Assembly (NCBI RefSeq): GCF_009931435.1
Contig: NZ_CP043414.1
Direction: 5' to 3' (one strand)
Source of the DNA: Escherichia coli
GTDB lineage: Bacteria > Pseudomonadota > Gammaproteobacteria > Enterobacterales > Enterobacteriaceae
DNA length: 64,000 nucleotides
Shown: in pieces, positions 32,001 through 39,407 of the stretch
Layout of the letters: each line of letters starts with the position of its first letter
How positions within the stretch are numbered: the first letter of the stretch is position 1
Made by a program: the position numbers

Positions 32001-35000
32001 CAACCAGGCGGCCTGAACACCACGTCGGTGAAAAGTGGGCAACAATGGGATGCGCCAAACGGCTGGGCACCGTTGCAGTGGGTCGCGACAGAAGGATTAC
32101 AAAACTACGGGCAAAAAGAGGTGGCGATGGACATTAGCTGGCACTTCCTTACCAATGTTCAGCACACCTATGACCGGGAGAAAAAGCTGGTGGAAAAATA
32201 TGATGTCAGCACCACCGGAACAGGGGGCGGCGGTGGCGAATATCCATTACAGGATGGCTTTGGCTGGACCAATGGTGTGACGCTAAAAATGCTGGATTTG
32301 ATCTGCCCGAAAGAGCAACCATGTGACAATGTTCCGGCGACGCGTCCACTCAGTGAATCAACAACACAGCCGGTAAAACAAAAAGAGGCGGAACCTACGC
32401 CTTAACTTTACTGTATATCGAGCAATGCCATTACGTGCATAAAATTGGCATTGCTCTTTCTTCATCACGAAATACCACTCTTTCTACAGTCTATGCCTTT
32501 ATTTTCTTTTATTAGGGAAGATTTTAATTTTATTTTATCAACTTGTTAATCATTACACCTCTATTTATATTTTCCCCCACTCCCCATTCTCCCTGACAAT
32601 TTTCTTGTGGAACAAAGTGTTATTTAAGAAACAAGCAAATCATTCTGTCTCTTTAGACAAATTTTGACATCAAACATGATCTTTTTCGCTATATGTGTAA
32701 GTATATAGCGGTTTTAATTATCAGGATATTACTTATGTCACTAACCAGACGGAGGTTTACACAGATTCTTGCGTCGACATTGTTCCTGCATCATCTGCCG
32801 TCCTTTGCACAATCAGTCAAATTCTGGGCCTCACTGACGCTTCCCGAAGCCCAAAACATTACACGCATCGTCAGCGCAGGCGCGCCCGCCGATTTACTAT
32901 TGCTGGCTGTCGCGCCAGAAAAAATGGTCGGTTTTTCCTCTTTTGATTTTGCCCGTCAGGCATTAATTCCATTGCCAGAGCACATTCGCCAGTTCCCCAG
33001 GCTGGGACGACTCGCCGGGCGCGCCAGCACACTCTCGCTGGAAGGGCTTATGGCATTACATCCCGATTTGGTCGTTGATTGCGGCAATACGGATGAAACC
33101 TGGATCTCCCAGGCACGGCAGGTTAGCGAACAGACACAAATACCCTGGTTATTGCTTAACGGGAAACTGGAACAATCAGCAGAACAGTTAACAACGCTTG
33201 GCAAAACGTTAGGCGAAGAGCACCGCGCCGCAGAACAAGCCAATCTCGCCAGCCGCTTCGTTGGTGAAGCTCAGGCATTCGCCACCTCACCCGCCGCTAA
33301 CCTCAGCTTTTATGCTGCGCGCGGTCCTCGAGGGCTGGAAACGGGCTTACAGGGTTCGTTGCATACCGAGGCGGCGGAATTATTAGGTTTGCACAACGTC
33401 GCGCAAATAGCCGATCGCCACGGTCTGACACAGGTTTCCATGGAAAATCTCCTGCGCTGGCAGCCGGATATTATTCTGGTTCAGGAGGCCGTTACTGCAG
33501 ATTTTATTCGTCGTGATCCTCTCTGGCAGGGCGTGAAAGCGGTTGCGGAACAACGCATCTTATTTTTAAGTGGCCTGCCCTTTGGCTGGCTGGATGCCCC
33601 GCCGGGAATCAACCGTCTTCTGGGATTACGCAGACTTCACGCCTGGCTGGATCCCGCCATCAATCGCCAGTTTAAAAGTGACATGCAGCATTACGCCCAA
33701 CTGTTCTGGCATTGTTCACTCAGTGACGCCGACTATCAAAAATTGGTGGCGAGCTAATGAGAACCGTAAACGGATGTATTTTGCTGCTGGCAGCTATCAG
33801 TATCACTTTTGCCGCCGTAAGTGGGGCTTATCATCTCGATATACAGCAACTGCTGGCGCTCATTCTTCGTCAAGAAAATGTTCCTGTGCAGGAACAAATT
33901 GTCTTCTGGCAAATCCGCGTGCCGCGTATTCTTGCTGCGCTGTTTCTGGGCGCGGCGCTGGCAGGGGCCGGAACCACCTATCAGGGAATGTTCCGTAATC
34001 CCTTAGTGTCACCGGATATTTTAGGCGTCTCCGCCGGTGCCGGACTTGGTGCCTGCGCGGCAATCCTGTGGGGATTATCCATTGTTTACATCCAGCTGTA
34101 CGCATTTTGCGGCGGGCTGATGGTGGTCGCGGGCGTCTGGTTGATTACGCGTCGGGTGACCCGCCACGATCCGATCTTAACCCTGGTGCTGGTAGGCATT
34201 GCGTTAGGAACGTTGTGCGGAGCGGGGATATCGCTAATAAAAACGCTGGCCGATCCTTACACCCAGTTACCGTCAATTACCTTCTGGTTGCTGGGGGGGC
34301 TGTCCACCGTGACCTTACGCGATCTCTGCTATGCTGCACCGATCATTCTCATAGGCTCCTTGCCCCTGTTTTTTCTCCGCTGGCGCATGAATTTACTCAC
34401 GCTTTCCGACGACGAAGCCCATTCGCTGGGACTGAACGTGACACGTCTGCGCTTTGGATTAATTGTCTGCGCCACACTCATCACCGCCAGCACGGTAGCA
34501 ATAGCGGGCATAATTGGTTGGGTCGGCCTGGTCGTTCCGCACATTGCCCGCTTGTTGACCGGTCATAACCATCAGCAGCTGTTGCCCATGGCAATGTGTA
34601 CTGGCGCGATTCTGCTCCTGCTTACCGATACGCTGGCACGCAGCATTGGAACAACAGAAATCCCACTTGGCATTCTGACCGCTTTTGTTGGTGCACCGTT
34701 TTTCCTGTTTTTGTTGTTACGCGGAGGTCGCCAGTGACTTTGCTTGCCGTCCGTCATGCGTCTCTGGGTTACTCCCGCCATCCGGTGCTACGCGACGTGT
34801 CCTTCACCCTGTCGCAAGGAACAATTTGTTGTCTGTTAGGAGCCAATGGTTGCGGCAAAACCACACTCATGCGCTCCATTCTTGGTGTTATACCGTTATT
34901 AAAAGGCGAGATCTTACTGGATAGCCTCCCTGTGCAGACACTCAGCCATCGCCAGCGCGCGCAGGCTATTGCCTGGGTGCCGCAGGCGCACGACGGCATT

Positions 35001-38000: not shown

Positions 38001-39407
38001 CCGCCGGTTTTGCGGTGACCCACATTCGAGCCGATTACACCTTAGGTCATGGCTTCAGCGTTAATGCGTCGGTCAATAACCTGTTTGATACCAAATATGC
38101 CTACAGTGAAGGGTTTATTGAAGAAGGTCGCAATTTCTGGGCAGGTGTCGAATATACGTTCTGATGTGAAAGCGGATAGCAACATCTGTATCGCTATCCG
38201 CCTTATGAAAATCTTATTCTCTTCGCAGGAGGCGGAAAACACCCAGCACCAGGATAGCGCCCACTACCGCCACCAGGAAGCTGTGCAGATTAAAACCACT
38301 GATGGAGCCGCCAATGCCAAACATGGTCGCCAGCCAGCCGCCAACCACCGCACCGATTATCCCGAGAATACAGGTCAGGAAAAATCCACCACCATCACGC
38401 CCCGGCATGATTAGCTTGGCGATAATGCCGGCTATCAGGCCAAAAATAATCCAGGCAATAATTCCCATGTTCAGGCCCTCGTTTCGATGAATCGGACGCA
38501 AGAAATGCTTACGTCAACGCTCTAAGTATAGGCAAGGGCGGGATCGATGCTGGGCGTTTGTCGGCTGATTTAAGAACAACATGTAAAAAATATTCACGCA
38601 TTTGTATTAAGTTTTGTTAACTGTGACCGATAAACCAAAGACAGTTTGTCAGTCAGGAGTTTTTCCGCGTGAGTCATTACCATGAGCAGTTCCTGAAACA
38701 AAATCCGTTAGCCGTCCTGGGCGTGTTACGCGATTTGCACAAAGCCGCAATTCCTTTGCGTATCAGTTGGAATGGCGGGCAGCTGATCAGCAAAATACTG
38801 GCAATAACCCCGGATAAACTGGTGCTGGATTTCGGCAGTCAAGCCGAAGATAACAACGCTGTGTTAAAGGCGCAACACATTACCATTACCGCCGAAACCC
38901 AAGGCGCGAAAGTCGAATTTACTGTTGAACAACTACAGCAGAGTGAATACTTGCAGCTTCCGGCATTTATTACCGTACCGCCTCCCACCTTGTGGTTTGT
39001 ACAACGACGCCGATATTTCCGCATCTCCGCCCCACTCCATCCGCCTTATTTTTGCCAGACCAAACTGGCGGATAACAGTACGTTACGTTTCCGCCTGTAT
39101 GATTTGTCGTTAGGCGGCATGGGCGCATTACTGGAAACGGCAAAGCCTGCCGGATTGCACGAAGGCATGCGCTTCACTCAGATTGAAGTCAACATGGGGC
39201 AATGGGGTGTTTTTCACTTTGACGCCCAATTAATCTCCATCAGCGAGCGCAAAGTGATTGATGGCAAGAATGAAACCATCACCACTCCCCGTCTGAGCTT
39301 CCGTTTTCTTAACGTCAGCCCGACGGTGGAGCGGCAATTACAGCGGATTATTTTCTCTCTCGAGCGGGAAGCCCGGGAGAAAGCGGCCAAAGTGCGCGAC
39401 TGATTTA

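Follow-up and report, generated by a model that had tools for sequence, protein, structure and literature searches.

A candidate ModE-repressed, TonB-dependent uptake operon with an embedded methyltransferase and ModD in Escherichia coli

Introduction

What does an operon take up when, besides the parts of a transporter, it encodes two enzymes? The question is raised by a 64,000-nt stretch of Escherichia coli DNA (NCBI RefSeq assembly GCF_009931435.1, contig NZ_CP043414.1), which was analysed as a whole and is called the window hereafter. Between the treA stop (~32405–32406) and the convergent ymgE, six tightly packed open reading frames (ORFs) lie on the plus strand. They encode, in this order, a periplasmic substrate-binding protein, a permease of the FecCD/BtuC type, an ATP-binding cassette (ABC) ATPase, a methyltransferase dependent on S-adenosylmethionine (SAM), the ModD protein and a TonB-dependent receptor.

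The names given to these genes in RefSeq and UniRef are ‘iron ABC transporter substrate-binding protein’, ‘TonB-dependent receptor’ or ‘TonB-dependent siderophore receptor’, and ‘ModD protein’. The public annotation that we looked at holds neither a gene symbol nor an experimental name for any of the operon genes. Likewise, no paper describing the operon, or a ModE-controlled TonB-dependent receptor, was found in a literature search that did not reach some older key work or the RegPrecise tables.

We propose that the operon is a ModE-repressed, TonB-dependent system for the acquisition of molybdenum (or tungsten), and put the probability of this reading at roughly 0.7. A first-pass annotation of the window, made from the sequence, had suggested a chelated metal or a corrinoid-like compound as the cargo. 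The FecCD-type importer and the receptor on which that suggestion was built are there; the evidence, however, points to molybdenum or tungsten rather than iron or B12, because of a ModE operator, the mod genes found in the neighbourhood in other genomes, and the likeness to the molABC-modD genes of Haemophilus influenzae.

A putative ModE operator over the promoter

Upstream of the binding-protein gene, a putative −35 hexamer, TTGACA, is followed 15 nt further on by the start of a palindrome, which covers the region expected for the −10 element and the transcription start; 23 nt separate its end from the first ATG. It agrees with the E. coli ModE consensus, ATCGNTATATA-N6-TATATANCGAT (as quoted in PMC545781), at 17 of the 20 positions that this specifies. 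No other match to the consensus occurs in the 64-kb window, nor did any arise in 100 shuffles. As a calibration, the proven modA operator of K-12, GTCGTTATATT-GTCGCC-TACATAACGTT, scores 16/20 and ends ~20 nt before the modA ATG.

The site is conserved. Upstream regions were aligned from 11 Enterobacterales sequences (8 species-level genomes) of Escherichia, Citrobacter, Enterobacter, Raoultella, Klebsiella and one genome labelled Serratia. The flanks have diverged in this alignment, and only TTGA(C/T), the operator and the Shine-Dalgarno sequence are kept, with the TTGA of the −35 hexamer invariant. Most of the Enterobacterales operon loci examined retain the operator upstream of the orthologous first gene. 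Furthermore, over 1.6 Mb of related loci, where chance is estimated to yield ~0.05 sites scoring at least 17/20, such sites occur almost only directly upstream of cluster genes, i.e., those for the binding protein, the receptor, the methyltransferase (Edwardsiella), ModD (Vreelandella) and modE-modA (Arcobacter). An extra ModE site stands before the receptor gene in Proteus, Providencia, Morganella, Shewanella and Pectobacterium.

As the operator lies over the promoter, its position implies that molybdate-bound ModE would repress the operon, as at modA, rather than activate it. Of the upstream elements that the first-pass annotation had proposed to look for, the ModE element was thus recovered as a conserved operator over the promoter. 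The other two were not: the 330-bp upstream region has no Fur box within 3 mismatches, the best candidate (13/19) lying inside the AT-rich operator region itself, and Rfam gave no riboswitch match in the window or in seven related loci. A scan for promoters and terminators had flagged the palindrome as a terminator-like hairpin; the consensus match and the conservation led us to reject that assignment.

The methyltransferase and ModD beside molybdate transport genes

We scanned one genome per species with the E. coli methyltransferase and annotated the resulting 80 loci by phmmer. A FecCD permease lies within 7 kb in 53 of them, a TonB-dependent receptor in 49 and ModD in 47. The full order, binding protein-permease-ATPase-methyltransferase-ModD-receptor, recurs in Escherichia albertii, Citrobacter, Raoultella, Klebsiella, Enterobacter, Serratia, Pectobacterium, Proteus, Providencia, Pantoea and Erwinia. 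It is incomplete in Yokenella, where the contig is cut upstream, and in Morganella, where the operon is partly decayed; the Shewanella operon has no ModD.

Outside these operons, the two enzymes are found with molybdate genes of other kinds. In Betaproteobacteria the order is receptor-DUF2478-binding protein-permease-ATPase-methyltransferase, and three of six such loci continue with modA, modB and ModD, sometimes also with a full-length modE. Thus, Rhodoferax has receptor-DUF2478-binding protein-permease-ATPase-methyltransferase-modA-modB-modD, and the clusters of Comamonas and of a Burkholderiaceae genome contain the same genes, modA and modB included, with a full-length modE at the end. The Arcobacter cluster reads modE-modA-mop-modB-modC-methyltransferase-modA2-modB2-modD, every member being confirmed by NCBIfam. 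In Vreelandella, modA follows ModD and the methyltransferase, with modB also beside them. Edwardsiella has the methyltransferase-ModD pair alone, with a ModE site directly upstream and no such transporter within 10 kb. In addition, molbindin (di-Mop) genes adjoin the cluster in Pectobacterium and the methyltransferase in Pollutimonas, and napA adjoins the methyltransferase in Helicobacter cetorum.

The pair therefore occurs with the type II operon, with ModABC and, in Edwardsiella, without a transporter, and so is not tied to one transporter type. Judged by these neighbourhoods, the methyltransferase and ModD are neither passengers nor bound to a particular transporter, but members of what reads as a molybdenum-responsive module. 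The first-pass annotation had regarded both as genuine, if unusual, members of the operon, and their recurrence as a pair in other genomes agrees with this. Its view of them as an oddity of this one operon is not supported, for they are conserved beside molybdate transport genes across proteobacterial classes.

Several further neighbours of the methyltransferase were recorded. The small DUF2478 protein is encoded beside it in the betaproteobacterial loci L006 (5556–6101), L057, L060, L062, L065–L068, L071, L072 and L086; this protein has no NCBIfam match, and no literature on it was found. No mol- or mod-type transporter gene was detected near DUF2478 and the methyltransferase in Bordetella and Castellaniella. 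A metagenome contig (L008, 11940–12461) has a THEP1-like nucleoside triphosphatase gene after the receptor gene. Neither in L008 nor in most of the DUF2478 loci does ModD directly follow the methyltransferase. In Shewanella mangrovi (L005/L025, ~12279–12788), a lone methyltransferase lies 2.5 kb from a gene of the Nitro_FeMo-Co (dinitrogenase iron-molybdenum cofactor) family, and in Edwardsiella hoshinae (L036, 12461–13678) a MoeB/ThiF-like adenylyltransferase is encoded just downstream of the lone methyltransferase-ModD pair.

Relatives of the transporter components

Among solved structures, H. influenzae MolB (HI1471) comes closest to the permease, with 221 bits and 43% identity; the haem permease HmuU gives 171 bits and 40%. 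For the ATPase, MolC (HI1470) is the best single-domain solved match at 126 bits, a margin over FhuC (120.7 bits) that does not discriminate.

The binding protein is more distant. With the profile of its family, the uncharacterised structure 4pag scores 258 bits, and H. influenzae MolA comes fourth, at 80 bits and over the C-terminal lobe only. Two motifs of the family, Y-x-RG-x-GLETG-x-GS-x-HTE and PFGWLD-x-PPG, are missing from MolA. We therefore rejected the idea that the protein is a MolA orthologue and place it in the 4pag subfamily. Its signal sequence (32735–32815 in the window) is of the twin-arginine type, and the RR-x-F pattern recurs in most family members in the alignment, which suggests export of the folded protein by the twin-arginine translocation route.

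The receptor could be placed in no characterised subfamily.

Features of ModD and the methyltransferase

ModD scores 498.9 bits on TIGR01334 (cut-off 178.85) and 133 bits on the nadC model, whose cut-off is 198. It keeps the residues T-R-K, H-R, Glu and Asp that bind substrate and phosphoribosyl pyrophosphate (PRPP) in the quinolinate phosphoribosyltransferase of Mycobacterium tuberculosis. All 50 family members, however, have Phe at the position of the M. tuberculosis Lys172, a residue that we take to contact a quinolinate carboxylate, and Arg105 is mostly replaced by Lys. The full set of quinolinate- and PRPP-binding residues that marks NadC is thus broken in ModD at the Lys172 equivalent. 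From these residues, ModD is probably an active PRPP-dependent transferase with an altered substrate pocket and another substrate, and probably not a quinolinate enzyme. The same replacement settles the identity of the ModD-like genes found a few kb from the methyltransferase in Betaproteobacteria: they were considered as NadC and rejected, since all have the ModD-specific Phe.

The methyltransferase represents a distinct family. Its SAM motif, GCG-G (residues 67–71), is invariant, as are D127, A131, S132 and R133 inside a conserved CDIxVASRST stretch. A structure model of high predicted local distance difference test score (pLDDT 92) has generic small-molecule methyltransferases as neighbours, none of them specific, and so gave no hint of the substrate. 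The top NCBIfam match is to the corrinoid-protein-associated CpaM, at 43 bits, with weaker ones to ChlM and CbiT, all below cut-off.

Gene layout and the receptor pseudogene

Features of the locus are collected in Table 1. RefSeq gene calls in near-identical E. coli loci agree with the ORFs of the window, where the operon consists of five intact genes and a receptor pseudogene.

Table 1. Coordinates of the treA–ymgE operon features in the window
Feature	Position	Strand	Length	Remarks
treA terminator hairpin	32420..32456	+		GAGCAATGCCA...TGGCATTGCTC, then TTTCTT; 15 nt past treA stop; read from the sequence
Putative −35 hexamer	32664..32669	+		TTGACA; read from the sequence
Putative ModE operator	32685..32712	.		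TTCGCTATATG-TGTAAG-TATATAGCGGT
Periplasmic substrate-binding protein	32735..33757	+	340 aa	Peripla_BP_2 / cluster A class III; twin-arginine-type signal LTRRRF
FecCD/BtuC-type permease	33757..34737	+	326 aa	Type II ABC importer
ABC ATPase	34734..35492	+	252 aa	GTG start overlaps permease stop
SAM-dependent methyltransferase	35502..36314	+	270 aa	Class I
ModD	36311..37165	+	284 aa	TIGR01334; quinolinate-phosphoribosyltransferase-like
TonB-dependent receptor pseudogene, whole	37191..38164	+		
Receptor 5′ fragment	37191..37712	+		Residues 1–174; signal peptide, TonB box DTLTVWS (37269–37289), plug
Receptor 3′ fragment	37713..38164	+		Last ~149 residues, HNIDAD...VEYTF; out of frame with 5′ fragment

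The treA terminator is taken as the upstream boundary, beyond which the operon would require a promoter of its own. Start and stop codons interlock at three junctions: TAATG between the binding protein and the permease (33755–33759), GTGA between the permease and the ATPase (34734–34737) and ATGA between the methyltransferase and ModD (36311–36314). The two remaining junctions are a 9-nt gap between the ATPase and the methyltransferase (35493–35501) and one of 25 nt before the receptor (37166–37190). This spacing supports the prediction of one coupled unit. The six-gene unit described in the first-pass annotation stands in its strand, its coordinates and its three overlaps, with a correction to the shorter gap, there given as 10 nt.

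The sixth ORF, which was already recognised as damaged at that stage, is not an intact gene. Relative to an E. coli locus of 99.5% identity (L001), the window lacks 997 bp at 37711–37713. The deletion takes out about residues 175–507 of 656 and shifts the frame, and past the junction 35 further codons lead to a stop, so that the receptor ORF ends at 37820. The intact orthologue (L001, 7192–9162), of 656 aa, has both plug and barrel. A functional receptor would have a signal, a TonB box, a plug and a complete 22-strand barrel in one frame; the window copy does not. The window strain has lost the outer-membrane step.

E. coli E200086 (L089) shares the identical deletion junction. In this strain another 4.7 kb of the operon is gone as well, and what is left of the binding-protein gene, its first ~138 nt, is fused to the receptor remnant (6343–7104 of that locus). 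As E200086 carries the same junction together with the further loss, the operon was lost there in at least two steps. Eight more genomes gave a single-piece match across the junction in a sequence search. Taken together, the loss looks like stepwise decay within one lineage.

Distribution and decay

The operon is carried by 2139 of 5426 complete E. coli genomes (~39%), always at the treA–ymgE site. In K-12, this interval is an unrelated segment of 622 bp with only ycgY, on the opposite strand. Homology to K-12 stops exactly at the treA stop (window position 32406) and restarts at 38141, 24 nt inside the 3′ end of the receptor gene. The comparison bears out the earlier description of the operon as accessory content in a place where K-12 has only ycgY. 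We also considered ycgY as a remnant of the operon and rejected it, since the homology is limited to the last 24 nt of the receptor gene.

The flanks themselves are unusually divergent from K-12 for core genes (30000–32406 and 38141–41000 were compared): identity is 94.5% over dhaM-treA and 96.9% over ymgE-ldcA. At the ymgE edge, the genomes without the operon match at only ~93%. This divergence is more suggestive of two old haplotypes spanning the entire region than of a recent insertion.

Decay is not confined to the window, and the partly dead system of this strain fits what is frequent elsewhere. The methyltransferase of an O157:H7 strain has an internal stop, and operon genes are split or missing in E. 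albertii, Symbiopectobacterium, Pluralibacter, Morganella and Providencia stuartii. One apparent outlier, a 3.2-kb contig (L009) labelled as a Collinsella sp. metagenome-assembled genome, is 99% identical to the E. coli operon; within an actinobacterial gut genome bin, it is almost certainly a binning contaminant.

Proposed mechanism and alternatives

How might the parts work together? When molybdate is plentiful, ModE with bound molybdate would sit on the operator and shut the operon off. When molybdenum is scarce, transcription would yield a single, translationally coupled message. Where the operon is intact, the TonB-dependent receptor would carry a molybdenum species across the outer membrane, and the class III binding protein would hand it to a type II ABC importer related to MolBC. 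ModD and the small-molecule SAM methyltransferase, co-made with the transporter, would act in the cytoplasm, as parts of the molybdenum response and not of this transporter. In the window strain, at most the inner-membrane and cytoplasmic steps could work, on whatever porins admit to the periplasm.

A stronger form of the proposal is that, in enterobacteria and many other Proteobacteria, the receptor opens an unrecognised, ModE-controlled and TonB-energised route for molybdenum or tungsten across the outer membrane, and that the methyltransferase and ModD make up a new two-enzyme step in the handling of molybdenum, turned on solely when the cell is starved of it. We advance it tentatively, as a possibility that we would not yet bet on.

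Having made the proposal, we would note the points that weigh against it. First, free molybdate is usually assumed to cross the outer membrane via porins, and we know of no characterised TonB-dependent receptor for molybdate. Second, a ModE site alone is no proof of a role in transport, as ModE also activates genes that merely use molybdenum. Third, the permease is only modestly nearer to MolB (43%) than to HmuU (40%), and the binding protein, being of the 4pag subfamily and no MolA orthologue, may have a ligand other than that of MolA. Fourth, the E. coli methyltransferase was the query by which the loci were gathered, which biases the counts to Enterobacterales. Finally, the frequent decay (the window, O157:H7, E. 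albertii, Morganella, Providencia) means that the operon is dispensable in many niches.

Among the alternatives, the one that survives best keeps the ModE framework and changes the cargo. According to it, a chelate of molybdenum or tungsten, a ‘molybdophore’ made by the cell or its neighbours, is imported, and ModD and the methyltransferase process or recycle the ligand. Bulky chelates are the usual cargo of TonB-dependent receptors and of type II ABC importers. ModD combines the catalytic residues of an enzyme for a pyridine dicarboxylate with an invariant change in the substrate pocket, and the methyltransferase has the fold of those acting on small molecules. The affinity of MolA for free molybdate is weak, ~100 μM (PMC3928620). 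Nevertheless, the enzyme pair is also found beside the type I ModABC, which takes free molybdate, and in Edwardsiella with no such transporter within 10 kb, and so the enzymes do not depend on a ligand brought in by the receptor. The operon, moreover, has no genes for biosynthesis or export of a chelator. We consider a molybdophore unlikely, though it deserves to be kept in mind.

The second alternative likewise retains molybdenum or tungsten transport and gives the methyltransferase, with or without ModD, the task of detoxifying look-alike oxyanions or metalloids (tellurite, selenite, arsenite), as TehB and ArsM do. The similarity of the methyltransferase to ArsM or TehB is, however, no better than to dozens of unrelated methyltransferases, and ModD is left without a role, which makes detoxification improbable.

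Third, the public annotation could be right, in which case the operon takes up an iron chelate and the ModE-like palindrome is coincidental or secondary. The names in RefSeq and UniRef speak for it, as do weak family-level matches to FecB, FepB, FecCD and TonB-siderophore models. Yet every iron-specific NCBIfam match falls far under its curated cut-off, and the upstream region offers no better Fur box than the one mentioned above. On the other side of the ledger, the ModE operator is conserved across genera, and in other taxa the cluster also includes ModD, modE, modABC and molbindin genes. Iron is very improbable.

The weakest alternative, uptake and remodelling of a corrinoid or tetrapyrrole, in which the methyltransferase and the phosphoribosyltransferase would act on the imported cofactor or its lower ligand, draws on the best NCBIfam match of the permease (the archaeal-type BtuC model, 244.6 bits) and on the CpaM, ChlM and CbiT matches of the methyltransferase, but is the least probable of all, given that the BtuC-type and CpaM scores are far under their cut-offs (461 and 180 bits), that BtuB gives 78 bits against 599.7 and BtuC 195.7 against 334, that no cobalamin riboswitch occurs in the window or in seven related loci, and that the ModE operator and the mod-gene neighbourhoods would have no place.

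Significance

Molybdenum supports anaerobic respiration and formate metabolism in gut Enterobacteriaceae. To our knowledge, its uptake is thought to rest on ModABC and non-specific routes, with no dedicated step at the outer membrane. If the acquisition of molybdenum or tungsten is indeed the function of the operon, this picture would change, since ~39% of complete E. coli genomes and many other Enterobacterales would then possess a TonB-dependent system under ModE control, and the passage of molybdate or tungstate across the outer membrane would not be left to porins. The widespread label ‘iron transporter’ would be corrected as well.

The operon also makes the orphan ModD, together with the methyltransferase conserved beside it, accessible to experiment, by which ModD, named three decades ago, might be assigned a function. 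Treatment with tungstate has been put forward to suppress blooms of Enterobacteriaceae in colitis; presence, absence or decay of the operon at the level of strains could affect sensitivity to tungstate.

Comparison with known systems

The closest known relative is the MolBC-A importer of molybdate and tungstate in H. influenzae (HI1470–HI1472), which shares the type II importer of the FecCD fold, a related ATPase and a class III binding protein. The mol locus contains modD (HI1473) adjoining molABC (PMC3928620), as the E. coli operon has its own ModD, and molB is repressed by molybdate (PMC4031551), a control that is implied in E. coli by the ModE operator. Differences exist, however. Of the two, only the E. 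coli operon encodes a TonB-dependent receptor and a SAM methyltransferase; it has no counterpart of the second set of modA/modB-like genes that adjoins the mol genes, and its binding protein is 4pag-like, whereas MolA, of another subfamily, is a low-affinity binder of free molybdate.

With the ModABC system of E. coli itself, the operon has in common a CGnTATATA-N6-TATATAnCG palindrome just upstream of the first start codon (16/20 at modA, 17/20 here), and it presumably serves the same nutrient. The machinery is different: type I ModB and class II ModA there, a type II permease and a class III binding protein here. ModABC, furthermore, has no outer-membrane component and no enzymes in its operon.

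The name ModD originates from modABCD of Rhodobacter capsulatus and modDABC of Geobacter, where a TIGR01334 protein is likewise encoded with molybdate transport genes. In contrast to the E. coli protein, ModD is found there beside a type I transporter, with no methyltransferase or receptor reported. According to the TIGR01334 description, loss of ModD in R. capsulatus is said to have only a mild effect. Geobacter modDABC also carries a ModE-type site (PMC545781). Relative to NadC, ModD belongs to the same fold family and has the T-R-K, H-R, Glu and Asp residues, with Phe in place of Lys172.

The fec, fhu, fep, hmu and btu systems have the three-compartment design in common with the present operon: a receptor bearing a TonB box and a plug is combined with a binding protein of cluster A, a FecCD permease and an ATPase. 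Unlike them, the operon reaches no equivalog threshold, has neither a Fur box nor a B12 riboswitch, is apparently under ModE control and embeds two enzymes. The operon thus does not belong to btu, fhu, fec or hmu, in keeping with the first-pass view that this is no classical siderophore, haem or B12 system. The kind of system that the operon most resembles, judged from its genes and operator, is ModE-controlled uptake of molybdate by an ABC transporter, to which the receptor and the conserved enzyme pair would be new additions.

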